In this document: positions 6,423-23,305 of the stretch, one piece after another
Position numbering within the stretch: position 1 is the stretch's first letter
Layout: every line of letters starts with the position of its first letter
Origin: an uncultured Gammaproteobacteria bacterium
GTDB lineage: Bacteria > Patescibacteriota > Microgenomatia > UBA10105 > UBA927
Direction of reading: 5' to 3'
DNA length: 64,000 nt
NCBI GenBank assembly: GCA_964430295.1
Contig: CAYSEV010000002.1
Coordinates: forward strand, 7,024-71,023
Position numbers and translations under genes: made by a program
Notes under the pieces: generated by a model
Told to the model about the DNA's origin: nothing
What the model saw: the letters and a program-made list of their open reading frames with translations, nothing else
Databases searched by the model: none

Positions 6423-7194
6423 TGCAATCATCATAGCCAAAAATGAATCTGCAAGGATTAGAGCGTGCATACAGCATCTGTCGTTTTGTTCTCATATCTT
6501 TGTCATCGATAACGGTTCAACGGATGACACAATCGCATCTGCAAAAAAATCAGGAGCAATAGTCTACACAACCGATTCAAAAAATTTCGCAGATGTGCGA
6601 AATTTGGGAGCAACATATTCAACAGCAGACTGGCTGTTGTATATAGATGCAGATGAATTTGTCAGCCCTTCACTGCAAACAGAGGTAGAAGATGTGATCG
6701 CAGGAAATAGCGATATAAAAGGATATAGAATACTTCGTGATAATTATTACCTAGGGTATCTGTGGCCTACTCATGATGGTATGGTTCGGCTTATTCATCG
6801 AACATCACTTACAGCGTGGCGTGGAGATATCCATGAACATGCTGAAATTCAAGGGACTGTGGGAGTGCTAACAAACCATCTTATTCATGACACACATCGA
6901 ACGCTTCATGAGATGACGGAAAAAACAAACGAGTGGTCAGAAATAGAAGCGAAACTGCGGTTTGATACAAACCATCCGCAAATTGTCCCATGGCGACTGT
7001 TTCGTGTCATGTTGACGGGATTTTTTACGTCGTATATGAAAGATGGCGGATGGAAAATGGGAACTGTCGGGCTAATTGAAAGTATTTTTCAGGCTTTCAG
7101 TATGTTTACCACATACGCCAAACTGTGGGAATTACAACAGAAGGCGAATGATAAGTCAAAAGGGAAAAGTGTAAAGTCGAAAAATGATTTATGA
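6400..7194 (+). CDS. GT2 glycosyltransferase (WaaE/KdtX-like paralog)
   Basis: The listed ORF starts at 6199 but overlaps the upstream gene by >200 nt. The internal ATG at 6400 (MSQKKSIDAIIIAKNESARI...VIDNGSTDDT...YIDADE) gives a canonical GT2 N-terminus and a 23-nt overlap. C-terminal ILRDNYYLGYLWPTHDGMVRLIHR is paralogous to 4594 and 33927. Confidence 0.65.
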   Translation: MSQKKSIDAIIIAKNESARIRACIQHLSFCSHIFVIDNGSTDDTIASAKKSGAIVYTTDSKNFADVRNLGATYSTADWLLYIDADEFVSPSLQTEVEDVIAGNSDIKGYRILRDNYYLGYLWPTHDGMVRLIHRTSLTAWRGDIHEHAEIQGTVGVLTNHLIHDTHRTLHEMTEKTNEWSEIEAKLRFDTNHPQIVPWRLFRVMLTGFFTSYMKDGGWKMGTVGLIESIFQAFSMFTTYAKLWELQQKANDKSKGKSVKSKNDL

Positions 7195-9524
7195 GAAATA
7201 TTGTTCAAAAGTATTGGCCAATTTTCGCAATAGGTATACTCTGGGTTGTGTTTAGTGCGTCGTATTTCATAAAGGGACTTGTGCCGTTTCCGTCATCATA
7301 TCTGATTTCCTCATTTCCTCCGTGGAATGCACATACAGGCGTTCCTGTAAAAAACAATGCAATGCCCGATATTATTTCTCAAATTTATCCGTGGAAAGTA
7401 TTGACGGTGGATTCCTGGAAAAAGGGTGTAATTCCGTTATGGAATCCATATAGTTTTGCCGGCACCGGTCATGCTGCAAATTATCAGACAGCTATTTTCT
7501 CTCCACTTACACTTTTATTTTTTGTTCTGCCGTTTATAGATGCATGGAGTCTCTTAATCTTGCTGCAACCGCTTGTCGCGGGACTTGGCATGTATCTGTT
7601 TCTTCGTGAAAGAAATTCTAGTGCACGGGTAGGGTCTTTTATCGGTGCAGTAGCATTTATGTTTTGCGGATTTATGGTCGGATGGATGGCGTATGGGACT
7701 CTTGGGTGGTCTGCAGCCATGTTACCATGGATATTATTTTTTATCTCCAGATACGTATCAAAACATATATGGTATGCACCAATTCTGGCGTCTCTTTCTA
7801 TAGCGGCTTCATTTGTATCAGGACATTTTCAGATCAGTGTATATGTCCTGGGACTTTCACTTCTGTATACAATATTTATATCAGTTCGCTATAAACGGAT
7901 TACTGATGGATTTATTTTGTTACTGTATATACTGTTCGGTCTTGCTATTGCTGCCCCACAACTGCTTTTGACGTATCATGCATATCAACAATCTGTTCGC
8001 AGTACGAGTTTTATAAAAGGTGAAGTGATTCCATGGAATTATATAGTCTCACTATTTGCTCCTGATTTTTATGGAAATCCCGTGACACGTAATGACTGGT
8101 TTGGTCATTATGCCGAATGGGCGTCATATATTGGAATCATTCCACTTATTCTGGCTCTATTATCTTTTGCATATAAGCGAACAAAAGAACAGTTGTTTTT
8201 TATGTGTGTCGCAATCATAACAATGATCCTGGCATATCAGTCACCTCTGAGTGACCTATTATTTTTCCTAAAAATCCCTGCGCTTTCTACGAGTGCAGCT
8301 TCCCGTATTTTGATTCTAACAAGCTTTTCATTATCGTTTTTAAGTGCTGTCGGATGGAGTCATATACAGGATATATGGGTTAGTAAAAACCGAAAATTAT
8401 TTTTTATATATAGTGCCTGCATACTATCAATTGTACTCATTATCTGGGGAATTGTTCTGGGACTTCGTCCGTTTGATATTGAAAAATTGTCTGTAGCAAA
8501 ACGTAATTTGGTTTTGCCAACTGGTCTCACTCTTCTGTCACTGATACTCATGGTTGCAGGGTTTATGAAGTCAAAGATGATGAAAAGTGTCGTCATTCTT
8601 CTGATACTTTTCGGAGTGGTATTTGATCTGTATAGATTCTCTTCTAAATGGATGCCATTTGAATCCAGATCGGATATATATCCGCCGGTTGCATCTTTAG
8701 AATATCTTCGCGCACATGCCGGACCTAACCGTGTATTCGGAAATATTGGCGGTGAAGTTGCATCCACTTTTGGTATTTCACTTATCGAAGGATATGATGC
8801 GATGTATCAGAAACGGTATGGAGAATTTATGCAGGCGGCATCAAAAAAACTTCCGCTTCCTCCTGAACGGTCTGTTGTTCAGTTCGATAAAAACGGAGTT
8901 CACAGAGATACCGTATTGCAACTTCTGGGTGTGAAATATATCTATCATCGGAAAAGTGATGGTCAGGCAGTCTGGGCATTTCCGTTTTGGGAATACGAAA
9001 AAGCGGGGAGTATGAAACAGGTGTATGCTGATGATGACTACTGGATTTACGAATATACCGATGCCTTCCCACGCGCATTTCTGGCGGGAAATTATGTGGT
9101 AAAACAATCGGACCGTGAACTTCTTTCAGAGCTTTTTTCCGACCGCGTGAACTTACGAGATACAGTCCTTTTGGAAGAAGAACCATCTGTAAAACCTCAA
9201 GAGGGAAGCGCATCGGCTGAAATCGTATCCTATACACCCAACCGTGTGGAAATAAAAACAACAGCAGATTCACCAAAATTACTTTTTCTTTCCGATACGT
9301 ATGACTCCGGTTGGAGTGCCCGGTTAGATGGTGTAAACCCTACTCGAATTTTTCGCGCAGATTATGACTTCCGGGCCGTTGAAGTGCCAGCCGGTGTTCA
9401 TACTGTCGAGTTTATATATAGACCATCATCTGTATTGTTCGGATTCTGGATTTCCATCGCATCACTCATTTCGATTATACTGAGTACTATCTCATCGTAT
9501 CTTTATGAACATCGGCATCGTTAG
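7191..9524 (+). CDS. YfhO family polytopic membrane glycosyltransferase (subfamily B)
   Basis: 777 aa. IYPWKVLTVDSWKKGVIPLWNPYSFAGTGHAANYQTAIFSPL near the N-terminus (conserved in 10559 and 24907). C-terminal SDTYDSGWSARLDGV...AGVHTVEFIY beta-sandwich motif. ATGA overlap with upstream gene. Confidence 0.75.
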   Translation: MRNIVQKYWPIFAIGILWVVFSASYFIKGLVPFPSSYLISSFPPWNAHTGVPVKNNAMPDIISQIYPWKVLTVDSWKKGVIPLWNPYSFAGTGHAANYQTAIFSPLTLLFFVLPFIDAWSLLILLQPLVAGLGMYLFLRERNSSARVGSFIGAVAFMFCGFMVGWMAYGTLGWSAAMLPWILFFISRYVSKHIWYAPILASLSIAASFVSGHFQISVYVLGLSLLYTIFISVRYKRITDGFILLLYILFGLAIAAPQLLLTYHAYQQSVRSTSFIKGEVIPWNYIVSLFAPDFYGNPVTRNDWFGHYAEWASYIGIIPLILALLSFAYKRTKEQLFFMCVAIITMILAYQSPLSDLLFFLKIPALSTSAASRILILTSFSLSFLSAVGWSHIQDIWVSKNRKLFFIYSACILSIVLIIWGIVLGLRPFDIEKLSVAKRNLVLPTGLTLLSLILMVAGFMKSKMMKSVVILLILFGVVFDLYRFSSKWMPFESRSDIYPPVASLEYLRAHAGPNRVFGNIGGEVASTFGISLIEGYDAMYQKRYGEFMQAASKKLPLPPERSVVQFDKNGVHRDTVLQLLGVKYIYHRKSDGQAVWAFPFWEYEKAGSMKQVYADDDYWIYEYTDAFPRAFLAGNYVVKQSDRELLSELFSDRVNLRDTVLLEEEPSVKPQEGSASAEIVSYTPNRVEIKTTADSPKLLFLSDTYDSGWSARLDGVNPTRIFRADYDFRAVEVPAGVHTVEFIYRPSSVLFGFWISIASLISIILSTISSYLYEHRHR

Positions 9525-10554
9525 TCCATATTTTGATTCACTTGGTGGCGGGGAACGCTATATGTTTTCCATAGCTGCACGCGTATCGGGAAGTCATACT
9601 GTACATATATTTTGGGATGATCCAAACATTCTCCAAAAAGCATCAGAGCGGTTTATGCTGGACCTTCGAACTGTATCCGTCGTGCCAAATGTATTTGCTC
9701 ATGGCTCGTTTATAGAGAAGCTGTCTGTCACAAAAAAGTATGATGCTATATTTTTTCTGACGGATGGAAGTATTCCATTTAGTCTCGCAAAACATAACAT
9801 TCTTCATATACAGGTACCCTTTGCCCATATCGATATGCCATTCTGGAAACGGCTGCGATTTAACACTGTTATATATAATTCGAAATTTACATACGAGCAT
9901 GCGGATAGGTCAATTGCAGCTATTGCACATCAGATTATCTATCCGCCGGTGAAACCAATACAGGCATCTGCCGCATCAAAAACAAAACAGATTCTCTCAG
10001 TCGGACGGTTCGGCGGTCTCTATAATGCAAAAAAGTTTGATGTTCTGATAGATGCATTTGAAACATTCATACAGGAAAAAGCATATAAAGGCTATACACT
10101 TGCACTTGCAGGTGGCGTCCTTTTAACAGATACACATGCATTTGAAGCGCTCAGAAAACGGGTAGAAAAACTTCCTGTTGTTTTGTATCCGGACTGTCCG
10201 TATAAAACGCTTATTTCTTTGTACGAAGAGTCTTCTGTGTATTGGCATGCGGCAGGGTTTGGTGAAACTAAACCTGAAAATATGGAACATTTTGGTATTG
10301 CGCCTGTGGAAGCCATGAGTGCCGGAACAGTCCCAGTTGTATATAACGGAGGTGGACTGCCGGAAATAGTAACAGATGGTACAGATGGATATCTGTGGAA
10401 TACTCCCGAGAAGCTCGTGGCAAAAACCAAAGAACTGGTATCTGACCCGATCGTATATAACAAACTATCTGCACAGGCAATGATAACAGCACAAAAATTT
10501 TCAACTGACGCATTTAATACGCAGATAGATATGGTACTCAAGTCGTTCACATAA
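9505..10554 (+). CDS. GT4 (GT-B fold) glycosyltransferase
   Basis: MNIGIVSPYFDSLGGGERY N-terminus and FGIAPVEAMSAGTVPVVYNGGGLPEIV (E-x7-E region) typical of GT4/GT1 retaining glycosyltransferases. Confidence 0.75.
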   Translation: MNIGIVSPYFDSLGGGERYMFSIAARVSGSHTVHIFWDDPNILQKASERFMLDLRTVSVVPNVFAHGSFIEKLSVTKKYDAIFFLTDGSIPFSLAKHNILHIQVPFAHIDMPFWKRLRFNTVIYNSKFTYEHADRSIAAIAHQIIYPPVKPIQASAASKTKQILSVGRFGGLYNAKKFDVLIDAFETFIQEKAYKGYTLALAGGVLLTDTHAFEALRKRVEKLPVVLYPDCPYKTLISLYEESSVYWHAAGFGETKPENMEHFGIAPVEAMSAGTVPVVYNGGGLPEIVTDGTDGYLWNTPEKLVAKTKELVSDPIVYNKLSAQAMITAQKFSTDAFNTQIDMVLKSFT

Positions 10555-10558
10555 CTAT

Positions 10559-12787
10559 ATGAAACGTTTAGACATGTCAGCCATAGGATTATTCATACTT
10601 CTTGCCGGCGTATTTTTTTATAAAACGCTGCTGTTTGGTCTTCTGCCAGTGCCGTCTGACGATTTGGTTGGCTTATATCATCCGTACAGAGACCTCAAAG
10701 CCGCAGAGTATCCAAACGGTATTCCGTATAAAAATTTTCTGATAACCGATCCTATACGTCAGCAGATCCCATGGAGAAAACAGGCGATTGATTCATTCAA
10801 AAAAGGAAAACTTCCGTTGTGGGATACCACATCATTTTCGGGCACACCGCTTTTGGCAAATATACAATCAGGTGCATTGTATCCGTTTAACATTCTGTTT
10901 TTTGTGTTGCCGTTTCAATCAGCATGGACAGTACTCGTCATATCACAAATCCTACTTTCCGGCATATGTATGTACATATTCTTACGTGTGCTTTCTTTGG
11001 ATGCGATGCCGGCACTTTTTGGATCGGTGCTCTTTTCATTTTCAGGAACCTCAATTGCATGGCTGACGTGGGGAACTATTGTGTCTACATGGATGTGGAC
11101 GCCGCTTGCCCTTGCAAGTATCCATTCACTTTTCTTACATGAAAAAAAACAAACGCGCTTATGGATACTCCTTGGCAGTATCGCAATTATCTGTTCATTT
11201 TTTGCGGGGCATTTGCAGATGTTTGTGTACAGCATGCTGACAGTCGGCGCCTATGCAATCTGGCTGTACCTGTCACACGATAAAAAACGGATCCACTCTT
11301 CATTGATCGGTATACTTTTGAGTTCTGTAACGGTTATTTCGTATCAGCTTATTGCCATATTACGATGGCTTCCGCAGACAGCCCGGGCAGTTGGGGGGAG
11401 TGCATGGCATGCTGAAGGCTTTTTTATACCAATTCAGCACTTAGTTCAGTTTGTTGCACCTGATTTTTTTGGAAATCCTGCAACACTTAATTATTGGGGT
11501 ACATGGAATTACGGAGAAATGGTCGGATATATCGGCATAGCTGGACTTCTTTTTGCCCTTATTGGTATATCAAAACGTACAGCATTTTGGGGATTTTTGA
11601 GCGCAGTAGCGCTGCTATTTGCAGTGCAGTCACCGATCAGTGCTCTTCCATACATATTGCATATTCCGTTTGTCTCAAGTCTTCAACCGACACGGCTTTT
11701 GGTAGTAGTAGATCTTGCACTCTGTATCCTTGCTGCGTGTGGTTTTTCTGATGTACTCATAAAAAGTAAAAAACATGTGCTTCCGTTTGTGTTTTTGGGT
11801 GTTGTGCTTGTTGGACTGTGGGGTGTATATGCACTTCATAGTTCACTTGGTATATCGCTTGAAAATGCGTTTGTGATAAAGCGAAATTTATATATGCCAA
11901 TGCTTTTATTTGGGCTAGCTATCGCTTTTTCGATACTGCTTAGGTTTATAAAAAAACATGAACTGCGAATGGCAGTGGGCCTTCTGATTATTGGTGTTGT
12001 TGTCGTAGATTTGTTTAGATTTGGATGGAAATTCACACCCTTTACTGATCAGGCATTATTTTTCCCACGCACAAAAGTTATATCCTATCTGGAAAGTGCG
12101 CCAAAACCATTTCGCATCATGACGTTGGATGACCGAATTCTTCCTCCGAACACAAATACATATTACGGCATCGAATCTGTAAACGGATATGATCCGATCC
12201 ATTCGCTTCGATATGATCAGTTTATAGCGGCAATGGAACGGGGAGAAGCAAATATTGCGCCTCCATATGGGTACGAGCGCATTATGGTTCCAAAAAATAC
12301 GAACTCTCCGTTATTTAACTTGTTAGGTGTACGGTATTTATTGTCATTCAACGAGCTTACAGATCCACGATTTAAAAAGGTACTGACAGAAGGGCAGACA
12401 CATGTGTATGAAAATACTGCAGTTCTCCCACGGGCGTATTTAGTGAGTCGCGTAATTCATAAACAAACGGATCAGGAAATTATAAATACGCTGTACAGTA
12501 AAGATTTTGATTACCGTTTTGATGCTGTAGTCGAACAGCCTGTGGATGTATTAAATACAGAACTTCAACCGGGAGAGTCTGCAACCATAACTCACTACGA
12601 TGCAAACAGCATGACCATCCAGGTCAAAACCACTCAACCAAGGCTCTTAGTCATCGGCAACATGTACAACCCTAACTGGAAGGCTATGATTAATTCGAAC
12701 TCTAAACCTTTAATTAGGGTGAATTATATCTTCTGCGGGTTATTAGTCGAGGAAGGTGATTCCAAAATATTGTTCACATATCATTAA
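10559..12787 (+). CDS. YfhO family polytopic membrane glycosyltransferase (subfamily B paralog)
   Basis: 742 aa. PIRQQIPWRKQAIDSFKKGKLPLWDTTSFSGTPLLANIQSGALYPF motif and C-terminal GNMYNPNWKAMINSN domain. Confidence 0.7.
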   Translation: MKRLDMSAIGLFILLAGVFFYKTLLFGLLPVPSDDLVGLYHPYRDLKAAEYPNGIPYKNFLITDPIRQQIPWRKQAIDSFKKGKLPLWDTTSFSGTPLLANIQSGALYPFNILFFVLPFQSAWTVLVISQILLSGICMYIFLRVLSLDAMPALFGSVLFSFSGTSIAWLTWGTIVSTWMWTPLALASIHSLFLHEKKQTRLWILLGSIAIICSFFAGHLQMFVYSMLTVGAYAIWLYLSHDKKRIHSSLIGILLSSVTVISYQLIAILRWLPQTARAVGGSAWHAEGFFIPIQHLVQFVAPDFFGNPATLNYWGTWNYGEMVGYIGIAGLLFALIGISKRTAFWGFLSAVALLFAVQSPISALPYILHIPFVSSLQPTRLLVVVDLALCILAACGFSDVLIKSKKHVLPFVFLGVVLVGLWGVYALHSSLGISLENAFVIKRNLYMPMLLFGLAIAFSILLRFIKKHELRMAVGLLIIGVVVVDLFRFGWKFTPFTDQALFFPRTKVISYLESAPKPFRIMTLDDRILPPNTNTYYGIESVNGYDPIHSLRYDQFIAAMERGEANIAPPYGYERIMVPKNTNSPLFNLLGVRYLLSFNELTDPRFKKVLTEGQTHVYENTAVLPRAYLVSRVIHKQTDQEIINTLYSKDFDYRFDAVVEQPVDVLNTELQPGESATITHYDANSMTIQVKTTQPRLLVIGNMYNPNWKAMINSNSKPLIRVNYIFCGLLVEEGDSKILFTYH

Positions 12788-12869
12788 TTTAATGTAATAA
12801 ACTATTTATAAGTGCGTCAGTTAATTGATATAGAAAATTTTGTTGCATTATTGATATATAATTAAATAT

Positions 12870-14474
12870 ATGGCCATAGCTCACCCCCAAACAAAAACGT
12901 TAAGTGAGTTGATTTCTAAAAAAAGATATGTCGTTCCTACATATCAGCGACCATATGCGTGGGAGTTAGATCAAGCATCGGAGCTATGGGAAGATATTAG
13001 AAATAATACTCCCTCATATTTTCTTGGCATATTAATATTGAGGCAAAAAAAAGATAGTGAATATGAAATAGTTGATGGGCAACAAAGATTAGCAACACTT
13101 ATATTATTATTACGAGCTGTTGTTGAAGTTTTTGGAGAGGGATCACAAGAAGGAATCGAGATACAAAATGGATATATCCATCAAAAAGGGCCACTTGAAA
13201 AAAATGCAGAGTTCACGCTGACATTAAGCAAAAGAGATAAGTTAAAATTCGAGGCGTTACTTACAGGCGGCGACTATATAGCTAAAAGGAAGTATGCGTC
13301 ATGGCAAAGATTGGAAAAAGTAAAAAAATTTTTTGTATCTAAACTTGAAGAATTAAAAAACACTGAGGGGGTTTCTGGCATAACTACATTTATATTAGAT
13401 CGGGTAATGAAATTAAATTTTATAGATGTTCAAGTTGAAAATGACAGCGATGTCTATTTGTTTTTTGAAACATTAAATGATCGTGGAATGGACTTATCGA
13501 TAGCAGATTTATTAAAAAATCGTATTTGCGCTTTATCATCTAATCCTATATTTCCTCCTGACGACGATGCAAAAAGAGTAGACGATATTACTGAACTATT
13601 AGGTGAAGGCTCAATTAAAAGCTTCTTGCTTCACTATTGTTGGGCATATTCAGATGAAAAAAATCCACCTCCCCGAAAAGCTCTTATGGATTGGTTTAAT
13701 AAAGTTATCAACATACAAAAGAATAGTTTTCTATCGAAATTAGAAGAAAATGCGCTAGCTTACTCATATTTAATTAAGCCAGACCAATTAAGAGGAAAAG
13801 AAAAAGAAGTGCTTGTAAATCTGAAAGTATTAGGTGCAACTAGATGCTATCCACTCTTACTGATAGGAAAACATATTCTGTCAGAATCCGATTTCATAAA
13901 ATTATGTAGAGCAGTTGAAATTCTAACCTTTAGACATAGTACAGTATGTAAAAAAGACTCAAAAATTCTAGAGTCTGTTTACTATGATCTTGCTAAGGAT
14001 CTTAAAAAAGGTGTTTCAATCGATAAAATTCTTGGAATATTAAATATACAAAGTAAGAAAATATCTGATGAAACTTTTTTAGCTTTATTTAATGAATATA
14101 TACCAGAGAATCATAAGGTAGCAAAATATGTATTATTGAAAATAGAAGATTCGTATAACGATGGTAAATCAACTCCCCCAGATAGAGAAAAAGCAACGTT
14201 GGAGCATATTTTAGCCCAAAAACTAGATTGGATAGATAAAGATGAATATGTCGAAAGATTAGGAAATCTGACTTTATTATCTGAGCCATTAAATAGAGAA
14301 GCTGGCATGAAAGAATTTATATACAAAAGGGATTACTACACAAAAGAAATTGGAATTCAAATAACATTAGAATTATTAAAATATTCTGATTTCACGGTAG
14401 AAACAATCAAAGAAAGGCAAAGTCTATTTGCAAAACATGCGATTAAAATTTGGAATCCAGATATTCTAAAATAA
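12870..14474 (+). CDS. GmrSD-family type IV (modification-dependent) restriction endonuclease, single chain DUF262 + DUF1524
   Basis: N-terminal DUF262 signatures YVVPTYQRPYAWE and VDGQQRLATL. C-terminal DUF1524 His-Me finger signatures ATLEHILAQK and LGNLTLLSEPLNREAG. The gene looks markedly more AT-rich than its neighbours by eye, with non-coding DNA on both sides. Confidence 0.75.
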   Translation: MAIAHPQTKTLSELISKKRYVVPTYQRPYAWELDQASELWEDIRNNTPSYFLGILILRQKKDSEYEIVDGQQRLATLILLLRAVVEVFGEGSQEGIEIQNGYIHQKGPLEKNAEFTLTLSKRDKLKFEALLTGGDYIAKRKYASWQRLEKVKKFFVSKLEELKNTEGVSGITTFILDRVMKLNFIDVQVENDSDVYLFFETLNDRGMDLSIADLLKNRICALSSNPIFPPDDDAKRVDDITELLGEGSIKSFLLHYCWAYSDEKNPPPRKALMDWFNKVINIQKNSFLSKLEENALAYSYLIKPDQLRGKEKEVLVNLKVLGATRCYPLLLIGKHILSESDFIKLCRAVEILTFRHSTVCKKDSKILESVYYDLAKDLKKGVSIDKILGILNIQSKKISDETFLALFNEYIPENHKVAKYVLLKIEDSYNDGKSTPPDREKATLEHILAQKLDWIDKDEYVERLGNLTLLSEPLNREAGMKEFIYKRDYYTKEIGIQITLELLKYSDFTVETIKERQSLFAKHAIKIWNPDILK

Positions 14475-14520
14475 AAATGCAAATTTAAATTCCTAAGGAA
14501 ATTTATTTGCCAGTAATAAG

Positions 14521-14612
14521 AGAATTAGAGTTTATAGGGCAATTCCTTTTTGAGTTTATACATGTGGTAGAAATACATGTATGATTTTGGATCGCCGTTG
14601 GTGTGTCTAAAA
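14521..14612. repeat. Copy 1 of a ~90 bp direct repeat; duplicated fragment of the 3' end of the minus-strand gene 15764..17089
   Basis: ctttttgagtttatacatgtggtagaaatacatgtatgattttggatcgccgttggtg matches 15783-15848 with roughly 85-90% identity by eye. Read on the minus strand it encodes ...PKSYMYFYHMYKLKK-like residues. Confidence 0.6.
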
Positions 14613-14624
14613 AGCAGTTGCCAT

Positions 14625-14656
14625 TATCAGCATCCAGTGCTGATATGTCTTTTTTT
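14625..14656 (+). terminator. Putative intrinsic terminator (8-bp stem TATCAGCA/TGCTGATA, 5-nt loop, then TGTC and a T7 run)
   Basis: Hairpin followed by tttttttg, about 150 nt downstream of the GmrSD-like gene. The stem is AT-rich, so predicted stability is modest. Confidence 0.35.
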
Positions 14657-14820
14657 GCAAATATTCTTTTTTATCTCAAGGCGCTTTATTAGAGCCTATA
14701 GTATAGACAATTAGGCATTTTTACTGTATAATTCTTGCACCAAATATTATGAAGTCCCATTAGCGGGGTTAACATTATATTTGTATAAAATAGCACGTTA
14801 AAATTGCGGAATTATTTAGT

Positions 14821-14856
14821 CAGCCTGTGAGAGCATGTTAGTGCTTTGACAGGCTG
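14821..14856. promoter_or_regulatory. 8-bp inverted repeat (CAGCCTGT n20 ACAGGCTG) overlapping a TTGACA -35-like hexamer about 50 nt upstream of the lipoprotein gene
   Basis: Seen directly in the sequence. No convincing TATAAT at the right spacing, so it could be an operator or a structural element. Confidence 0.2.
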
Positions 14857-14907
14857 GCTTAATTCACATTGGCGATTTGTTCAGAAAATTAAAAAACGGA
14901 GTAAATA

Positions 14908-15624
14908 ATGAAAATGCCCAAGATTGTTTATGTATTGATAGCACTTTCTGTTCTCATAGCAGGATGCGGTCCGGCAGCCGCCCCTGAAATGAAGCCTATC
15001 AAGATGCTCGATAATGAATTCGCGACTGGAGCTGTAACATTCCAACATACTCTCCAGACACCCGACGGCGATGTCATCATTGAAACAAGCTATTCGACGG
15101 AGTATGACACGTCACAATGGCACATCACCACCCCGAAGTCGTTGGATATCAAGGCAAAGGTCATAAGCGCGCCTGTTGGGAAAACCATCTATATTGAGAA
15201 CATGCACGCAGATGTTTCACTAATCTGTGAGTATGAAACTTTAAATGGATGGAAGACTGATACGATGGATGACCACCTCCACACTGGGACCGCTCCTGGT
15301 TTTTTGATCACCAAGGATTATCAGTATGAAGAGTCATTCGCGATTGAAGGATTTTCTCAGACTCTTTTAGATGGGTGGGCATACTATAATCATGCAATCG
15401 GTATTGGTTCAGCAACAGTTGAGGAGAAGCCTCTGACTGAATCTAATCTGATTAACGAATTGCATGCAAAGGGGCAGCGATTGACCTTCGTGTACGATAT
15501 TTTGGTTCAAAACACAGGAGATGCCGCTCCTCACAAACACGTATTCTCTGATGAGTTCGGTGTTCCCGTTACCACGGTCGGGGTTAATCCTCCAAACTCA
15601 ACACCCACTGCAGAACCGCAGTAA
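14908..15624 (+). CDS. Lipoprotein of unknown function (type II signal peptide, lipobox LIAGC)
   Basis: MKMPKIVYVLIALSVLIAGCGPAAAPE... Good GGAG Shine-Dalgarno 7 nt upstream. GC content visibly higher (roughly high 40s %) than the surrounding locus. No recognisable family motif. Confidence 0.6.
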   Translation: MKMPKIVYVLIALSVLIAGCGPAAAPEMKPIKMLDNEFATGAVTFQHTLQTPDGDVIIETSYSTEYDTSQWHITTPKSLDIKAKVISAPVGKTIYIENMHADVSLICEYETLNGWKTDTMDDHLHTGTAPGFLITKDYQYEESFAIEGFSQTLLDGWAYYNHAIGIGSATVEEKPLTESNLINELHAKGQRLTFVYDILVQNTGDAAPHKHVFSDEFGVPVTTVGVNPPNSTPTAEPQ

Positions 15625-15756
15625 AGACTACTTACATGCCAATGTGAATATTTCCCGCGGTTTTTTGTTCGTGCAAACGCACTCTCCGACCAGTAGAATG
15701 GTTATCTTTTAAAAGATGTAACGTGAGGGTGTTTTTGCTATTTGCAAGATTAAATA

Positions 15757-15848
15757 GTCTACCTTAGAGCTTATATGGTAAAGGCTTTTTGAGTTTATAC
15801 ATGTGGTAGAAGTACATGTATGATTTGGGGTCGCCATCGGCGAAGTTT
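15757..15848. repeat. Copy 2 of the ~90 bp direct repeat (the native 3' end of gene 15764..17089)
   Basis: See copy 1. This copy is in frame as the C-terminus ...GDPKSYMYFYHMYKLKKPLPYKL* of the minus-strand gene. Confidence 0.6.
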
Positions 15849-17089
15849 ATGTAGCGGCCAGCCTCTGCTTCCTGCTGTGCAAATATAAAATTCTTTTTGA
15901 ATTCCTGCTTATTATCGCTTCCCATAAACTGATAGTAATTTGCTACTGCAAAATATCCCCAAAACACGAGTAAACCGAGTCTGATAAGTGTATTTTTTCG
16001 CATCCACAGTTCGTTACTAAACCACGCAAGAATCATGATGGCTACATAGAGTGTAGATGAAAAATAATAATCAGTCAGTTCACCCTTATATGTGGAAAAT
16101 ACAAACCATGGGATTACAAACCACAGCGCGGTTACGAAGCATAGAAGCATTGTCTTTTTGCTTTTATCCTTACGAATGAGTGCTAAGAAAAATACAGGAA
16201 CATAGAAAAACATTGCCAGTTTCAGTTTCTCATATGGCACCTGCATAATTGACTGAAATTTTATAAATGCATCAGGTGCCAGTTGGAGAACTCTTCGTAT
16301 GTGAAATCCGTGATAATAGGTGGCAAAATATCCTGAGTAATTATTGACACTTTTTGCATGAGCAGCTTGTGAATAATAGACAATCTGCGGGACGAAAAAC
16401 AGGAAAAATATCACAAGTGAAATACCATAATATTTTAGGTGTTCTTTATCCCATTTTAAAAACGGAGATGTACACAGGACTATCATCGGGTAAAAAATCG
16501 CAGTGAAGTGAATATGAAAAAATAATCCCATGACAACTGCCAGATATATACTGTATTTTGGGTGATCGGTCAGAAGTTTATAGAGATAATAGAGAATCAA
16601 CACAGAAAACGCAGGTAGTAAATTAACAGGCCACTGTGAGCGCTCAGCACCTGTAATATATGCACAAAACGTATAAATCGCCGTGGCCCATACTCCGACC
16701 CATGGTGAAAAAAGTTTTTTCGTAACTGTATAAATAATCCCAAAGCTAAACAACGATGTGACGGCAGCAAGAATAGGTGCTGCTATCGGGTTCAAGTCTG
16801 TGATCTTATACACGATGGCAACCAGGTAATAATACAGAGGCCCTATATACATACCGCTATTTTGTTTGGCAACCATACCGACAAGCGGGTATTTATGTCC
16901 TATCAATATTTTTGCGGCAGCCCAGGCATTATCCACCTGGTCCCAGTTAAAAGATGCCCACTTTTCCAGGTTATAGAATCGGAAAAAGAGGTGTGCTAAA
17001 AAAATAAGCCCAAGAACTATCAGGTGCGCATATGAAGAGCGCTTCGGTATGTCGGGTTTTTCTATACTCTGTTTTCGTTTTCCTGCCAT
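15764..17089 (-). CDS. Polytopic membrane protein, GT-C (PMT_2/ArnT-like) glycosyltransferase
   Basis: 441 aa, about 11 TM helices. N-terminal cytoplasmic stub, then FRFYNLEKWASFNWDQVDNAWAAAKILIGHKYPLVGMVAKQNSGMYIGPLYYYL, reminiscent of GT39/GT83 first-loop region. Confidence 0.55.
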   Translation of the reverse strand: MAGKRKQSIEKPDIPKRSSYAHLIVLGLIFLAHLFFRFYNLEKWASFNWDQVDNAWAAAKILIGHKYPLVGMVAKQNSGMYIGPLYYYLVAIVYKITDLNPIAAPILAAVTSLFSFGIIYTVTKKLFSPWVGVWATAIYTFCAYITGAERSQWPVNLLPAFSVLILYYLYKLLTDHPKYSIYLAVVMGLFFHIHFTAIFYPMIVLCTSPFLKWDKEHLKYYGISLVIFFLFFVPQIVYYSQAAHAKSVNNYSGYFATYYHGFHIRRVLQLAPDAFIKFQSIMQVPYEKLKLAMFFYVPVFFLALIRKDKSKKTMLLCFVTALWFVIPWFVFSTYKGELTDYYFSSTLYVAIMILAWFSNELWMRKNTLIRLGLLVFWGYFAVANYYQFMGSDNKQEFKKNFIFAQQEAEAGRYINFADGDPKSYMYFYHMYKLKKPLPYKL

Positions 17090-17138
17090 ATGTGTATTTT
17101 ACTTTATTTTCATAGGTATTACATGAGATAATAGGTAC

Positions 17139-18065
17139 ATGAAGAAAACAAACTCCACTCTCACAGTCTCCATCGTCATCCCAAACTGGAACGGTGTATA
17201 CCTCATGGAAAAACATCTCCAGAAAGTTATAGATAACGCACCCGGTGCCGAGATCGTGGTCGCAGATGATATGTCTTCCGACGGGTCAGTCACCTATCTC
17301 AAAAAGAATTTTCCAAAGGTTGTTGTGGTAGAAAGAAACAAACGTGAAGGCTTTGCCGCAAATGTTAACGCGGGCGTTGCAAAAGCGACAGGGGATATCG
17401 TCATACTTCTGAACACCGATGTAGAACCGGAAAAGGGATTTTTAAAACCGCTCTTATCTCATTTTGAACATCCGGACATGTTTGCTGTCGGTTGTCTGGA
17501 AAAAAGCCCGGAGGCAAATGGGGTTGTTCTTCGTGGACGCGGGTTAGCCCGTTGGACCAAAGGATATTTTATACATAGCAAAGGTGAAGTAGATGAGGGT
17601 ACTACAACCGCATGGGTATCCGGTGGCAGCGGCGCGTTCAGAAGGTCTATGTGGGTAAAACTGGGAGGTATGGATGTCCTTTATAATCCATTTTATTGGG
17701 AAGATATTGATCTGTCATATCGTGCACGTAAAGCGGGATGGAATATCGTGTTTGAACCAAAAAGTGTAGTGAACCATTATCATGAGGAAGGTAAAATTAA
17801 ACGCGAATTTACCCCCACAGATGTTAAACGCATTGTATACCGTAACCAGTTTGTATTTATCTGGAAAAATGTGTCAAATGTATCTATTCTTCTGTCACAT
17901 ATATTTTGGACACCAATTCGGTTAGTGCAAGCCACAGTATCGGGAGACATGCTTATGGTTCAGGGATATATCCGTGCAATTGGTATGCTTCCACGTATAT
18001 GGGTAGCACGGAGTAATCAGTCGAAGTTATGGAAAAAGGACGATGCCAGCTTAGGTGTGGAGTAA
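17139..18065 (+). CDS. GT2 glycosyltransferase
   Basis: VSIVIPNWNGVYLMEKHLQKVIDNAPGAEIVVADDMSSDGS...ILLNTDVE GT-A signatures. Confidence 0.7.
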   Translation: MKKTNSTLTVSIVIPNWNGVYLMEKHLQKVIDNAPGAEIVVADDMSSDGSVTYLKKNFPKVVVVERNKREGFAANVNAGVAKATGDIVILLNTDVEPEKGFLKPLLSHFEHPDMFAVGCLEKSPEANGVVLRGRGLARWTKGYFIHSKGEVDEGTTTAWVSGGSGAFRRSMWVKLGGMDVLYNPFYWEDIDLSYRARKAGWNIVFEPKSVVNHYHEEGKIKREFTPTDVKRIVYRNQFVFIWKNVSNVSILLSHIFWTPIRLVQATVSGDMLMVQGYIRAIGMLPRIWVARSNQSKLWKKDDASLGVE

Positions 18066-18069
18066 TGCT

Positions 18070-19743
18070 ATGAATAGGCAAATCAGATATTCATTTATGC
18101 GGTTTATAAAATCGCATGCGCTTCTTTTGTGTATTCTTGCTATTGGTATTTTTTTACGGGTCTATCACTTTAATCAAAATCCTCCTTCCTTAAATTGGGA
18201 TGAAGTATCAATCGGGTATAACGCATATTCCATCCTCAAAACAGGCAAAGACGAATTTGGCACTGTTATGCCACTCTATTTTCGTTCACTCGATGATTAT
18301 AAAATGCCGGTCTATGTGTATATGACAGCCGTCTCCATAAAAATTTTTGGATATAATAATACTGCAATCCGTTTACCGTCACTTCTATTTGGTATTCTTG
18401 CTATATATCTACTCTATATACTTGCAATGGAGCTTTCCCGAAAAAAAGACATTGCACTTACCGCCAGCTTTGTCATTGCGATCACGCCATGGAATGTTAT
18501 GTTTTCCCGTATGGCATCAGAAGCAAATGTTGCGCTGTCTCTCACGCTACTCGCGATAATCGTATTCTTACGAGGTCTAAGAAAAGATATAGCGTTGTTA
18601 TCCATATCTGTCCTTGTATTTGGTATCGCATCCTATACCTATTTGAGCTTTCGTGCAGTTGCACCTCTGATCGGGGCATCCCTCTTTCTTATTCACATAA
18701 AGGAAATCTTGAAATCAAGACAAACCCTGTTGTATATCCTGCTGCCGGGCATACTTGTCGGAGGTTTTCTTGTCAGAGACCTTATGTCCTCAACCGCTGC
18801 GATCAGATTCTCCGGAACTAATTTTTTATCCCATTCCAGTGAACTTCTTGAGATAAACGAAAAAGAAATGGCATATGATGGAACTCTTGGTATAAACATA
18901 CCACGACGTATTATTCATGACTCTCCAATATTTTCCGGGTTTCAGATTATTGCACGGGCATATCTTTCTCATTTTTCTGCAGACTTTCTTTTATATGGCA
19001 CAGGACACAAACAGGAAAGTTCAATATTTAGCGGGCTTATATATCTGTGGATGCTTCCATGCATGCTTTTGGGACTGTATATCCTCTTTGTTACACAAAG
19101 GAAGACAACAATAGCCGCAATTCTCTTATGGATTCTTATACCACCACTTCCCGCATCTATCACTTGGGATGCTCCGCATGCTATCCGCACATTGGGACTT
19201 TCTGTAGGACTCATCTTTCTTACCGCATTTGGATTATCAGGAATACTCACGTATATAACGAAACAAGCCGGCATACTGCAAAAAACAGGATTGTATATAC
19301 TGGTGAGTCTTCTGATTGGTTTTGAAGGATTTGTTTTTTTCCATCAGTACATGATTCATGTTCCACATGAGAGGTCAGCTCATTGGCAGTATTCATATAA
19401 AGAAATGTCAGAATATCTGGAATCTGTCAAAGACAGCTACGATAAAATTATTGTCTCAACCAAACTTGAATGGCCATATGCATTTATGTTGTATTATTCA
19501 CAATATGATCCAGCAACATATCTTGCACAAGGTGGGACCAGGTCCGGGAGCTGGAGTTCAGAGATAAACAAGTATGACAAATTCGAATTTCGCCGCATAG
19601 ACCAACAAAAAGATTTTGCCACACCAAATATCCTCATGGTTGGGGATCCGGATGATTTTTCCAATAGAAAAGATTTTATACGTTCTTTCCACTATCTGGA
19701 TGGCAAAACGTCTATTGTTGTTTTTGAATCCTCGAGAAAATAG
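18070..19743 (+). CDS. GT39 (PMT_2, ArnT/Pmt-like) polyprenol-phosphate-sugar dependent membrane glycosyltransferase
   Basis: FLRVYHFNQNPPSLNWDEVSIGYNAYSILKTGKDEFG first-loop motif (DE catalytic pair), 562 aa polytopic. The ORF-track start at 18055 is GTG inside the upstream gene; the ATG at 18070 lies 4 nt after the upstream stop. Confidence 0.75.
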   Translation: MNRQIRYSFMRFIKSHALLLCILAIGIFLRVYHFNQNPPSLNWDEVSIGYNAYSILKTGKDEFGTVMPLYFRSLDDYKMPVYVYMTAVSIKIFGYNNTAIRLPSLLFGILAIYLLYILAMELSRKKDIALTASFVIAITPWNVMFSRMASEANVALSLTLLAIIVFLRGLRKDIALLSISVLVFGIASYTYLSFRAVAPLIGASLFLIHIKEILKSRQTLLYILLPGILVGGFLVRDLMSSTAAIRFSGTNFLSHSSELLEINEKEMAYDGTLGINIPRRIIHDSPIFSGFQIIARAYLSHFSADFLLYGTGHKQESSIFSGLIYLWMLPCMLLGLYILFVTQRKTTIAAILLWILIPPLPASITWDAPHAIRTLGLSVGLIFLTAFGLSGILTYITKQAGILQKTGLYILVSLLIGFEGFVFFHQYMIHVPHERSAHWQYSYKEMSEYLESVKDSYDKIIVSTKLEWPYAFMLYYSQYDPATYLAQGGTRSGSWSSEINKYDKFEFRRIDQQKDFATPNILMVGDPDDFSNRKDFIRSFHYLDGKTSIVVFESSRK

Positions 19744-19850: not shown

Positions 19851-21569
19851 TCACTTACTTATAAATATTCTACAGAAAGTCTCAGCTGACATAGATTCCA
19901 CTGCAAAGTCCTTTAGGGTTATACCATGAGGATATGTAGATAAAGTATCCCTATTGCAGACATCGTTATTGTATATATCAAATATTGTTCCACCATCGGA
20001 AAGTCTGGATAGTTTTGTATATGTAGTTGTCTGTTTGGCCGGAAATCCACAGAGACTACTTACAATGTGAACAGCACTTGAACTTGCCGGATCAATTGAA
20101 TTATCACAGGATGTAAACGTGATTCCATCAAATGTAATCGGGCTATCCGGTTTCATTGGAATTGAAAGTACCTGTATGGTTTCAGGGGTAATCCTGTCTG
20201 CATAGACCAGATATTTTTTGAATATGTCGCTTCCCTGTGTGGAGTATACAATTACCGGTTTTTCTTTCGTTCGGGCCAGGTTCAGATATTTCGATAGTGT
20301 TCTCATGTGAAAATCTCCGGCTCCCTGCAGCGGTAATTGGTAAAAGTACACAAGTATAAAATTACCCACACTAAGAGCATATACAACGAAGTATATAAGT
20401 AATACAACATGTCGTTGTACTTTTGCCGTATGCGTATATATAAATGAAAGACCGTATCCAAGTATAAAGATGATGAACGGGAACATAAGTGCCAGATGTC
20501 CCGAAAAATCCGATTCTGTTCTATGAATAACATGAGGAAGTGCACCCAGCATAATAAAACCCAAAAGCACAATAAACATGCTTAGGTTGGAAGCAAATAA
20601 TGCACCGAATCCCAATATAATAACAATGCCCTCGACAGGATAGAAGAAACTATGTCGTGCCTGCAGGAAAAAATTATCTCCATCGGCAAATAAATATGAT
20701 GCGGAGAATATTCTAAATAGTTTATGCAAAAGGTGTTCTCCAAACAGTGTTGCTTTATTTACCATAAGAGATAAAAGAGGAGAGGGAATGGAAATTTTCC
20801 GTATACTGTCTACTTGTTTTGCAAATTCAGGTGACGTGGGTAAGAGAATATCAGATAACCGCGATTGGCCTGACAGTTTCAGTTGACTCATAAAAAATCC
20901 TACAAACACAACCGCCAGTATACACATGATCAATACGGATCTGGACGAAAGTTTTTTGTTTACCAACTTTGATACGATGAGTGCAAGGATAATAAACGGA
21001 ATAAATAAAATTTTTGTACCAATATATGAATAAAATCCCAATATAAACAGAGGGAATGCGTATAACAGTTTCTCCGGATTTGTGATAACTATATATAGCC
21101 CGAGTAGATAAAAAAATGTTGCAGGGGTAGATTCATATCCCGTTCTTCCCATAACGATGAGCCATGGGTTTATTGCGGCCAAAAGACCGGTGAATATGGC
21201 TGCACTCGTTCCAAACAGTTTTTTTGCAATCAGATACATGATAGCGACAATACCGATACTCATAAGTGCAAATGCATACCTATAGGCAAATAGAGAGAAC
21301 GGCAAATAGGAATCGGCTATCAAGTGAATGAAATATGGGAGTTCCGCCTGCAGTTCACCGGGCGGGTAACGGAATGCGAACACAGAAAGGGGATTCCATC
21401 TGCCGGTTATATCGTGGCCTGTTAATGCCATAGATCGGGCTGTTGTGGGGTAAATAAGCTCATCACCTGTTATGGCTGTCGGAACAGAATCCAAAAGTAC
21501 AAAACGAAAGGCCGCGGCAAGTATCAGTATGGCAATAAGAATTCTATGTGTGTATAAGTATTGTTTCAT
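19851..21569 (-). CDS. GT39-like (PMT_2 family) membrane glycosyltransferase
   Basis: The likely start is MKQYLYTHRILIAIL (ATGA overlap with the upstream stop at 21566-21568), not the longer listed ORF. LLDSVPTAITGDELIYPTTARSMALTGHDITGRW first-loop region, polytopic. Confidence 0.6.
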   Translation of the reverse strand: MKQYLYTHRILIAILILAAAFRFVLLDSVPTAITGDELIYPTTARSMALTGHDITGRWNPLSVFAFRYPPGELQAELPYFIHLIADSYLPFSLFAYRYAFALMSIGIVAIMYLIAKKLFGTSAAIFTGLLAAINPWLIVMGRTGYESTPATFFYLLGLYIVITNPEKLLYAFPLFILGFYSYIGTKILFIPFIILALIVSKLVNKKLSSRSVLIMCILAVVFVGFFMSQLKLSGQSRLSDILLPTSPEFAKQVDSIRKISIPSPLLSLMVNKATLFGEHLLHKLFRIFSASYLFADGDNFFLQARHSFFYPVEGIVIILGFGALFASNLSMFIVLLGFIMLGALPHVIHRTESDFSGHLALMFPFIIFILGYGLSFIYTHTAKVQRHVVLLIYFVVYALSVGNFILVYFYQLPLQGAGDFHMRTLSKYLNLARTKEKPVIVYSTQGSDIFKKYLVYADRITPETIQVLSIPMKPDSPITFDGITFTSCDNSIDPASSSAVHIVSSLCGFPAKQTTTYTKLSRLSDGGTIFDIYNNDVCNRDTLSTYPHGITLKDFAVESMSAETFCRIFISK

Positions 21570-23305
21570 AAAGGTTTGAGTATCTGAAATACTTCCTGAC
21601 CATTCGGTTGGTAGACAGTGCGCAGAAGCTCTGCAGATTGTGTCGCTACAGGACAACCACGGTATTGTACAAAAAGCGAATGTAGATCAGTATCCGTCAA
21701 TGCCTTCGGAGTATATGGCATGCCTTTTTTAAATCCTAAACGTGTGTTAAGCGGACAATCATCGCTTTCAAATTCATACATAGAAAAATTAATGCTGTCG
21801 GATTTATTTTTATCTGTATTTATTGATTCTTTCTGATACCTGCCGGGGTCGTAGGCCGTGAAAAAGAGAAAAAATACAGAAGGAGCAGATTCAGCATTTG
21901 TGATAATAATTTTTTTATACGTATCTTTTTGCTTTGCAATTTCACTCACAAGTTCGCTATATCCTGCATTTCGAAACTGTGCGCTTTGTATAGGCTGATG
22001 AATATAATATGCATCCAGATATTGAACCATATTAAACAGGTACACGATGGTAAGAAACAGCATAGGAACCATCAAGTATTTTACAGAGCGCATTTTTTCA
22101 CACAGTGCATATATCCCAAATGCGATCAGAATTGATAATGCAGGCTGCATTAGTAGCGTCCGTTGCATATTTGGGACATCATCATACGTTAAAGCGCTTC
22201 CAATGGGGGCTATAAGTATCCACAAACCGATAAGCAAATGATATCTCGATCGTCTCGTTACGATTATATATATACCTAACAGAATAAATATAAGTTCAAC
22301 CATATAGAGATTTCCTGCTCCGAATATGGTCATACGGGTGGGTAATGCTTTATCGCGAAAGAGAAAGTCAAAAGAGAAATGTGAAACATAATTATTGATA
22401 ATCTCGTTCCCATATCCAATAGCTTTGTTATGAAGGAGTCTCGTGAATTTAGAAGGTACAAATTTACCCCCATCTTCCCGTATTGCCTCATCAACCTTGA
22501 GTTGTGCATGAGGAGATTTAAATACACTTAACGACTGGATACGTAAAGAGAGAATAGGAGATTTGATGATGAATAAAAGCGGCAAAACAATACAGAGGAC
22601 ATACAAAATTCCTGAAAATACGAGATATCTTTTCGCGATATGTTTTCTATAAAGGTACACCAGGAGAGGAAATATAAACGGAACAAATGCACGGGGCGCT
22701 TGATACACTGTATACGTCAGTGCAAACATTACCACAGAAAAAATAAGATACACTAGGCTTTTTGATCGAATAGAGTAGAGAAATAGAAGAGTCGCACAGA
22801 TAAGCAGTAATACAACAAGAGTAATTTCTATACCAATGCGTGATGCATTTATATGCCATGGAGATATGGCAAGAACACCGGCAGAGAGAAGTGATATGGC
22901 ATCAGTATTCCGTAATTCCCCGGCTAACTTTTGTGCAGTATCTTTGATATTAAGTTCTATCAACAGAAGCAATCGAACAAGGAAAAATGTCAGCACTATA
23001 CTGAGTGTTCCAAACAGCGCGGATGCAAATCTGGCGGAAAATTCACTCAGCCCAAAGATGCTGATAAATGGAATACTTGCATAGGAATATCCCGCCGGGC
23101 TCCAGAAAAAAGATTGCAAATGAACTGGCAACACATTCCCGCTCATATCCTTACCGGTCTTTAGAATTGAATATGCGTTGTATGCCAAAAACGCTTCATC
23201 ACGATGAAAGCCAACAGGGTTAATTCCGAGGTGCCAAAAACGAAGTATACCCCCCAACAATACAATACAGAAAAGCGATATATAAATTTGCTTATGAATG
23301 CGCAT
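21566..23305 (-). CDS. GT39 (PMT_2) membrane glycosyltransferase
   Basis: LRFWHLGINPVGFHRDEAFLAYNAYSILKTGKDMSGN motif, 579 aa polytopic. Confidence 0.7.
   Translation of the reverse strand: MRIHKQIYISLFCIVLLGGILRFWHLGINPVGFHRDEAFLAYNAYSILKTGKDMSGNVLPVHLQSFFWSPAGYSYASIPFISIFGLSEFSARFASALFGTLSIVLTFFLVRLLLLIELNIKDTAQKLAGELRNTDAISLLSAGVLAISPWHINASRIGIEITLVVLLLICATLLFLYSIRSKSLVYLIFSVVMFALTYTVYQAPRAFVPFIFPLLVYLYRKHIAKRYLVFSGILYVLCIVLPLLFIIKSPILSLRIQSLSVFKSPHAQLKVDEAIREDGGKFVPSKFTRLLHNKAIGYGNEIINNYVSHFSFDFLFRDKALPTRMTIFGAGNLYMVELIFILLGIYIIVTRRSRYHLLIGLWILIAPIGSALTYDDVPNMQRTLLMQPALSILIAFGIYALCEKMRSVKYLMVPMLFLTIVYLFNMVQYLDAYYIHQPIQSAQFRNAGYSELVSEIAKQKDTYKKIIITNAESAPSVFFLFFTAYDPGRYQKESINTDKNKSDSINFSMYEFESDDCPLNTRLGFKKGMPYTPKALTDTDLHSLFVQYRGCPVATQSAELLRTVYQPNGQEVFQILKPL

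Follow-up and report, generated by a model that had tools for sequence, protein, structure and literature searches.

How a gene for a GmrSD-like nuclease came to lie inside a cluster of glycosyltransferase genes, and what its product may do there, is the question raised by a 64-kb stretch of contig CAYSEV010000002.1 (hereafter the window, i.e., all 64,000 nucleotides that were analyzed). The nuclease gene (12870 to 14474, + strand, 534 aa) shares a 2,976-bp segment with a lipoprotein gene (14908 to 15624, + strand, 238 aa), and this segment separates two convergent glycosyltransferase genes. On the left stands YfhO_b, encoding a YfhO-family membrane glycosyltransferase (10559 to 12787, + strand; Pfam YfhO, 2.1e-19), and on the right PMT2, encoding a PMT_2-family, GT39/ArnT-like enzyme (15764 to 17089, − strand; Pfam PMT_2, 4.3e-10). 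An initial annotation of this DNA had placed both open reading frames (ORFs) of the segment as we find them, and its description of the setting as a glycosyltransferase supercluster is accurate, since nearly all the window genes with a Pfam match belong to glycan assembly. Taken as one joint reading, the best explanation of the data, to which we give a probability of about 0.68, is that the segment was acquired horizontally in at least two pieces and carries a stand-alone type IV enzyme of the HEC-06 type.

Domain Architecture and Subfamily Assignment

The 534-aa protein has at its N terminus a ParB-like nucleoside triphosphatase (NTPase) domain (DUF262), which a helical linker connects to a His-Me finger nuclease domain (DUF1524) at the C terminus. 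The first matched GmrSD_N (PF03235; residues 11-219, positions 12900 to 13526) with 1.9e-36 and 126.5 bits against a gathering cut-off of 33.2, and the second matched GmrSD_C (PF07510; residues 408-522, positions 14091 to 14435) with 1.1e-19 and 71.2 bits against a cut-off of 23. The single-chain DUF262/DUF1524 nuclease that had been proposed from its motifs was, thus, recovered far above the gathering scores. These motifs are Y25QRPYAWE, D69GQQRL, E445HILAQ, and G465NLTLL...N475. In an alignment of 115 homologues, Q26, R27, D69GQQR73, F199ETLNxRG206, E445, H446, N466, and N475 were 97-100% conserved, and the motif set that includes Y25 (Y25-Q26-R27, D69-R73, E445-H446, N466, and N475) was 95-100% conserved. 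The reading frame is intact and of full length, and it keeps every catalytic motif. More than 1,300 homologues were found, all with the same two-domain architecture and similar length, and no record matched the exact sequence of the protein. Its AlphaFold2 (AF2) model had a pLDDT of 89.2 and a pTM of 0.83.

When the protein was compared with the PADLOC models, HEC-06 (PDLC04154) gave 2.2e-93 and 312 bits, with residues 5-529 aligned to profile positions 8-565 of 569, whereas the SspE and mREase_IV (classical type IV) models reached only about 46-47 bits, the former over short N-terminal stretches only. This profile match assigns the protein to the HEC-06 subtype. The second-best PADLOC family carried the label 'Orf5' (3.6e-74); the origin of this label could not be traced, and it was set aside. 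Next, a Foldseek search with the AF2 model returned DndI, BrxU, and SspE as the only PDB matches at E < 1e-3. DndI (9JFL) was the best of them, with a template modeling score (TMq) of 0.77 over the full length at 20% identity; BrxU (7P9K) had a TMq of 0.35 at 14% identity, and SspE (7DRI) was matched in its C-terminal domain with a TMq of 0.43. The earlier label 'GmrSD/BrxU-type' therefore stands for the GmrSD family and is imprecise for BrxU, given the HEC-06 profile score and the better fit of DndI. The low score of BrxU is partly explained by its domain-swapped dimer conformation, and the RLFDS nucleotide-binding motif of BrxU is missing from HEC-06 (preprint 10.1101/2024.01.29.577857).

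The likeness to HEC-06 (Payne et al.) and its homologue HEC-06Bact extends to the organization of the system, i.e., a single gene with DUF262, a helical linker, and DUF1524 that needs no partner gene. DGQQR is kept, and the nuclease motif reads EHICP in HEC-06 and EHILA in the window protein. The settings differ: HEC-06 is embedded in Hma or type I restriction-modification (R-M) systems of Proteobacteria, whereas the window copy stands alone within the glycan-biosynthesis cluster of a Candidate Phyla Radiation (CPR), Microgenomates-like genome. GmrSD (Eco94/EcoCT) and BrxU share PF03235 and PF07510 with it, together with the predicted chemistry of an NTP-dependent His-Me nuclease, but these classical type IV enzymes are remote from the window protein (46 bits for mREase_IV, and the low TMq of BrxU). 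SspE (7DRI/7DRS) has the DUF262 and DUF1524 architecture as well; however, with about 770-790 aa, it is the larger protein, and it is tied to phosphorothioation by SspABCD.

Insertion into a Variable Junction

To place the segment, relatives of PMT2 were collected from species-representative genomes and public assemblies. The order GT2-PMT2, followed in convergent orientation by YfhO_b-GT1-YfhO_a, is kept in six loci (L003, L005, L006, L020, L021, and L022), where PMT2 identity to the window runs from 44% to 81% and YfhO_b orthologues with 43-69% identity adjoin PMT2. Orthologues of PMT2 at 80-81% identity were found in L003, L020, and a further locus, L004. Homologues of the nuclease and of the lipoprotein were absent from all six syntenic loci, so this gene pair is no core feature of the position.

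What lies between PMT2 and YfhO_b varies from one relative to the next. The gap of L020 is empty, with 28 bp, and in L005, the two genes abut, with nothing between them. In L021, the gap of 273 bp contains a 62-aa ORF (9283-9471) that is common to L022, where a gap of 447 bp holds a relic of it (9402-9848). The gap of 619 bp in L003 carries an unrelated 159-aa ORF (11332-11811), and that of about 1 kb in L006 carries an S-adenosylmethionine (SAM)-methyltransferase gene (11215-12081). Apart from the small ORF of L021 and L022, these contents are unrelated to one another and to that of the window. Because the junction contents differ among relatives, and two of the loci are empty, we read the PMT2/YfhO_b junction as a variable slot and the 2,976 bp of the window as lineage-specific cargo that entered by a real insertion. 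The closest relative by the neighbor gene g18055 (79%) is L004, and its contig ends 139 bp after the PMT2 stop codon, at the junction; this break is consistent with strain-level variability there.

No attachment (att)-type repeats were found around the whole segment, the sole long direct repeat bracketing the lipoprotein gene only, and neither an integrase nor a transposase gene was found in the window. Inverted repeats around the nuclease gene were limited to weak 21-nt matches (81%), which were not credible and were rejected. A metagenome scan with PMT2 gave only distant loci (40-50%) lacking conserved synteny, so it is silent on the junction.

Composition and Composite Structure of the Segment

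The base composition of the two genes was then compared with the rest of the window. The nuclease gene has a GC content of 0.317 and a GC content at third codon positions (GC3) of 0.219, the minimum among the 50 window genes; the lowest-GC 1605-bp interval of all 64 kb falls in it, with z = −3.65 against the first 32 kb, and it is a GC outlier against either half of the window. The lipoprotein gene, with a GC content of 0.457 and a GC3 of 0.464, has the maximum among the 50 genes, and the highest-GC 717-bp interval falls in it. The impression that one gene is AT-rich and the other GC-rich, noted by eye at the start, is therefore borne out, as these are the two GC3 extremes of the window. Altogether, the segment stood up on the three points on which a foreign origin could have failed, with significant domain matches, a distinct composition, and absence of both genes from the syntenic relatives.

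The spacers of the segment had been described as the longest of the locus, which holds for one of them. The 433-bp spacer between the two genes is the longest intergenic gap of the window, and no credible small ORFs were found in it. The 139-bp spacer that follows the lipoprotein gene (15625 to 15763), up to the PMT2 stop codon, ranks third, and only the 26 bp beside that stop codon are common with L004. The 82-bp spacer upstream of the nuclease gene (12788 to 12869, + strand) ranks sixth, being exceeded elsewhere by gaps of 322, 107, and 103 bp. This last spacer, with a GC content of 0.171, is the presumed promoter region of the nuclease gene; no convincing promoter consensus was found in its 82 bp. 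A Shine-Dalgarno core precedes only 6 of the 50 window genes, so its absence before the nuclease gene is uninformative.

The history of the segment is best recorded in its interior. A 77-nt direct repeat, 86% identical, was found at 14525-14601 and 15764-15840. The second copy forms the genuine 3′ end of PMT2 (− strand), whose translation ends in KKPLPYKL* and which we call the 'P' allele. The first is an orphaned PMT2 3′ end on the same strand, comprising the last 24 codons and the stop (NGDPKSYMYFYHMYKLKKELPYKL*), with stop codons immediately upstream, and it lies 50 bp after the stop codon of the nuclease gene. The repeat, thus, brackets the lipoprotein gene and not the nuclease gene, and it is a diverged gene end rather than an identical att core. 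Over the 24 shared codons, the orphan and the resident copy differ by six single-base changes, all of them synonymous, where 17% would be expected for random changes (P = 2.5e-5), and therefore the copies diverged while both lay within working genes. The sole multi-base difference is a codon for E or P. Among the orthologues, those of L003, L020, and L022 encode E, as does the orphan, and those of L004 and L021 encode P. The use of this codon to decide which repeat copy is ancestral was rejected, as the polymorphism does not track PMT2 relatedness. The orphan matches the L020 and L022 orthologues at 68 of 77 positions (60 of 66 locally) and the copy of its own genome at 66 of 77. These comparisons suggest that the orphan was once part of PMT2 in another lineage, a related one, and that it was orphaned recently, with no obvious decay. 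The nuclease gene lies downstream of the orphan, taken on the strand of the orphan, and the lost remainder of that PMT2 would overlie the present lipoprotein cassette. From this geometry, the nuclease gene would once have adjoined an intact PMT2, with a recombination breakpoint at about 14601/14602.

Consensus searches of the stretch that separates the orphan from the lipoprotein gene detected a terminator-like hairpin with a 9-bp stem and a T-run (14625 to 14656, + strand) and a sigma-70-like promoter match (TAGACA-17-TATAAT; 14704 to 14732, + strand). The latter, with 11 of 12 positions, is the best in the region, lies about 175 nt upstream of the lipoprotein start, and may not be a promoter of the host. 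Further downstream, folding revealed an 18-bp hairpin (14818 to 14859, + strand) in what is presumably the 5′ leader of the lipoprotein gene. The fold of 14738-14910 had −49.3 kcal/mol and z = −4.59, and none of 200 shuffles was as stable. This leader hairpin matched no Rfam family, save for a spurious sub-threshold miRNA match, and it is not conserved upstream of the homologue in L002; it could be a regulatory element or a terminator relic. A scan of 12000-17500 against Rfam gave just two sub-threshold and biologically implausible matches, to a snoRNA and a plant miRNA.

The initial annotation had seen in this DNA a single islet of about 3 kb. The opposite GC3 extremes and the orphaned gene end, terminator-like hairpin, and promoter-like site that stand between the genes speak against it, and the segment is instead composed of at least two independent pieces. 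Piece 1 (about 12788-14601) comprises the AT-rich HEC-06-type gene and ends in the 77-nt PMT2 scar from a related lineage, and piece 2 (about 14602-15763) comprises the GC-rich lipoprotein gene, apparently with its own promoter. Either piece may have been the later arrival. As to the route, we infer that DNA was probably taken up from related lineages and then joined at this insertion-tolerant junction by homology-assisted or illegitimate recombination.

A wider view of the same observations, possible but doubtful, is that the convergent junction acts as a lineage-wide cargo slot of Microgenomates-like CPR, and that the nuclease gene moved from slot to slot between species, out of a donor lineage. 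Related lineages would supply the DNA, which would be taken up and refill the slot by homology-assisted illegitimate recombination, and scars like the 77-nt orphan would be left behind; the orphan would then show that the nuclease gene already occupied this slot in the donor. If true, this would be a concrete, traceable route for the exchange of defense genes among ultra-small genomes poor in integrases.

Neighborhoods of the Nuclease Homologues

Five homologue neighborhoods from other genomes were inspected. The closest relative (L001, 72%) lies beside a C5 DNA methylase, a Y1 transposase, and unknown genes. DNA similarity to it starts at 12851, i.e., 19 bp before the ATG of the nuclease gene, and ends at the stop codon; therefore, the mobile unit appears to be essentially the gene itself. 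In L008, with homologues of 47-50%, the neighbors are Rep, excisionase-like, and integrase genes. In L009, a closed Nealsonbacteria genome, the homologue belongs to an island with Eco57I/Tsp45I-like R-M, HEPN, SocA/Panacea toxin-antitoxin, integrase, and reverse transcriptase genes. The homologue of L011 is next to a type II R-M system, a methylase/HinP1I/Vsr module, and that of L012/L013 stands alone among housekeeping genes. The window and the five neighborhoods have no gene in common beside that of the nuclease, which fits the single-gene action of HEC-06, and in four of the five genomes, the homologue is AT-rich relative to its host locus. The window protein also matched phrog_21165, a PHROG with no assigned function, over its full length (1.7e-73), and the homologues in the phage collection, from prophage records of Listeria and Streptococcus, were all distant (28% or less). 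From the prophage-borne homologues and the PHROG match, the subfamily would be carried by phages as well.

Predicted Activity and Alternative Explanations

HEC-06 defends E. coli against phages, and this defense is lost in the Q79A, R80A, E471A, and H472A mutants; the essential residues are, thus, the QR of DGQQR and E471/H472, equivalent to E445/H446 here (preprint 10.1101/2024.01.29.577857). HEC-06 blocks T4. Its distant homologue HEC-06Bact gives protection from T2, T4, and T6, which does not extend to T4-GT7, a mutant with unmodified cytosine (PMC12366544). By analogy, the window protein is probably an NTP-dependent His-Me nuclease that cuts phage DNA carrying a base modification absent from the host. 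Its N-terminal ParB-like domain would bind and hydrolyze NTP via QR and DGQQR, and, in doing so, control the conformation of the enzyme and gate the C-terminal nuclease, whose His-Me finger (E445-H446...N466...N475) would cut the DNA. The enzyme would act alone, as a type IV system, on incoming phage DNA with a base modification foreign to the host. As the target modification would be absent from host DNA, no cognate methyltransferase would be needed, and no DNA methyltransferase or modification gene was found next to the nuclease gene. The two methyltransferase-domain genes of the window (51595-52320 and 57994-58920) are 37-43 kb distant and match generic small-molecule SAM-methyltransferase families.

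Modification-dependent restriction is the likeliest mode of action, judging from the experiments on the family, from which we infer the nuclease and NTPase activities, the modification dependence, and the defense role of the window protein. For the wider GmrSD family, glucosyl-hydroxymethylcytosine is the textbook example of a substrate. Specificity of the window enzyme for this base or for hydroxymethylcytosine, which the initial annotation had in mind, would be an extrapolation. Its statement that phages of such hosts often hyper-modify their DNA with sugars finds no support in the present data.

Several points weigh against the reading of an acquired, composite segment with a type IV enzyme. 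The Bacteroides homologue, with an identity of 22% to HEC-06, is the only one for which modification dependence was demonstrated in vivo (PMC12366544). DndI, the nearest protein with a solved structure, acts the other way round in that it spares phosphorothioate (PT)-modified self DNA (PMC11662687). The absence of a modification system covers the 64-kb window, and one may be encoded elsewhere. As to the history of the segment, the lead of the orphan over the resident copy is small (68 versus 66 of 77), the E/P codon that links it to other lineages does not follow overall PMT2 relatedness, and the promoter and terminator calls are consensus matches only.

The structural match leads to the first alternative, i.e., that the window protein is a DndI/SspE-like nickase that senses self-modification, damages DNA in which a host-specific backbone modification (PT) or some other self mark is missing, and depends on a modification system at another site of the genome. 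DndI senses PT on self DNA and attacks DNA lacking it, the dndI gene adjoins dndBCDE and is co-transcribed with dndFGH, and DndI damages host DNA when PT modification is missing (PMC11662687). Its domain order and its PxYQR, DGQQR, and His-Me motifs are those of the window protein, for which it is the sole PDB sequence match (5e-13) and by far the best structural match (TMq 0.77 versus 0.35 for BrxU), and the residues of the PT-sensing patch of DndI, P23, Y25, and Q26, are identical in the window protein. However, these three residues belong to PxYQR, a motif that does not vary among the 66-115 aligned family members, so they do not discriminate, and the low global score of BrxU reflects in part its dimer conformation, as noted above. 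DndI differs in being 60 residues longer, in its place beside dndBCDE/dndFGH, and in restricting DNA that has no PT; neither dnd nor ssp genes were found in the 64-kb window or beside the five homologues of the nuclease gene, and the SspE models scored about 47 bits against 312 bits for HEC-06. Moreover, an enzyme that harms cells without PT fits poorly with a gene that travels alone between genomes. We consider this alternative unlikely. As DndI attacks DNA lacking the modification, architecture alone does not fix the direction of modification dependence.

Under the second alternative, the host would gain no defense from the gene, which would be a mobile nuclease gene of a selfish or passenger kind, unexpressed or kept only by its own mobility. 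The foreign composition, the 82-bp upstream spacer with no recognizable promoter, the position within an operon-like glycan cluster rather than a defense island, and an insertion that appears recent, with its orphan scar undecayed, would all agree with this. On the other hand, the frame is intact and of full length with all the catalytic residues conserved, the family is experimentally a defense system (preprint 10.1101/2024.01.29.577857; PMC12366544), the terminator-like site after the gene suggests a functional transcription unit, and most of the window genes likewise have no recognizable expression signals. The probability that we assign to a mere passenger is accordingly low, and the HEC-06-type defense enzyme remains the preferred reading.

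Under this preferred reading, the locus is an ordinary case of the horizontal gain of a defense gene, its enzyme subtype already described and validated, with no sign of new biochemistry; homologues are already annotated in other CPR genomes, e.g., the closed Nealsonbacteria genome. CPR bacteria (Patescibacteria) have tiny genomes with few recognizable defense systems, and each well-documented case therefore helps to describe their immune repertoire. This one is a clean example, with a relative that has the empty site, a recombination scar, and a defense gene that would have been gained from a related lineage with no integrase. What the present analysis adds is the proof of insertion, the two unrelated acquisitions split by a scar, the rejection of the partner idea discussed below, and the caveat that DndI acts in the opposite sense. 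The nuclease is also a candidate for probing the DNA modifications of CPR phages.

The Lipoprotein Gene

The product of the lipoprotein gene has a signal peptide, a LIAGC lipobox, and a beta-sandwich, and the lipobox cysteine (C20) is invariant in six of six aligned family members. The family is small and unnamed: 5 close homologues were found among 5.8 billion proteins, and a profile search of 1.84 billion proteins gave 228 cluster representatives. Its members have an invariant set of His, Asp, and Glu residues and match no Pfam family, and tandem duplications were observed in P0127 (441 aa) and P0129 (475 aa). Searches of the lipoprotein against PADLOC, PHROG, and viral folds gave no match. 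Its closest homologue is GC-rich (0.52).

The initial annotation had suggested that the lipoprotein could be a partner acquired together with the nuclease, an idea that the neighborhoods of both families do not support. None of the five nuclease-homologue contexts contains a lipoprotein homologue, and neither of the two contexts of lipoprotein relatives (L002 and one Joint Genome Institute contig) has a GmrSD gene nearby. The lipoprotein gene is, on this comparison, best taken as an independent cargo gene that arrived separately, not as a partner of the nuclease. That the two genes form one functionally linked islet, as their adjacency, common strand, and joint absence from all the syntenic relatives could suggest, is very improbable in view of their opposite GC3 values (0.219 versus 0.464), the features that intervene between them, these disjoint contexts, family sizes as far apart as more than 1,300 matches versus 5 close ones, and a lipoprotein that is foreign to the defense, phage, and viral-fold collections. 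The uncharacterized family, with its invariant His, Asp, and Glu residues, may be a novel kind of surface enzyme, or of binding protein, with a bearing on the glycan envelope; this is a weaker addition to the idea of a cargo slot.

Genomic Setting and Further Observations

The glycan-assembly genes of the window encode GT2, GT4, PMT_2/GT39-like, YfhO, and PTPS_related membrane proteins, Wzx-like flippases, DegT aminotransferases, epimerases/dehydratases, and one acetyltransferase. No second defense-type domain was found among the window genes with a Pfam or PADLOC match, and about 11 genes matched nothing. The initial annotation had spoken of the only defense-like gene in the genome, whereas this result covers 64 kb of it. 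Neither tRNA nor tmRNA genes were found in the 64 kb. The named relatives of PMT2 are Candidatus Gottesmanbacteria and Levybacteria, and gene content and named relatives (Gottesmanbacteria, Levybacteria, and Parcubacteria) point to CPR/Microgenomates; most likely, the host is a CPR bacterium of the Microgenomates group. The title 'uncultured Gammaproteobacteria bacterium' on the records of L003, L004, L005, and L006 is probably a mislabel.

The GC content of the window is about 0.39 in 1-32000 and about 0.36 in 32001-64000, with the step near 32-33 kb, inside the continuous glycan cluster; the two halves of this supercluster may have different histories. The second-longest intergenic gap of the window, with 322 bp (57672-57993), lies upstream of the SAM-methyltransferase gene at 57994-58920, which gave a partial match to PADLOC 'mad2' (4e-12), most likely due to the shared methyltransferase domain only. 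Finally, paralogy is extensive within 30 kb: there are at least three YfhO-family genes (7191-9524, 10559-12787, and 24907-27336) and six or more genes of the PMT_2/PTPS_related type (733-2427, 18055-19743, 19851-21656, 21566-23305, 23292-24992, and 27372-29006), and these membrane glycosyltransferase paralogues have mutual identities of 25-33%.

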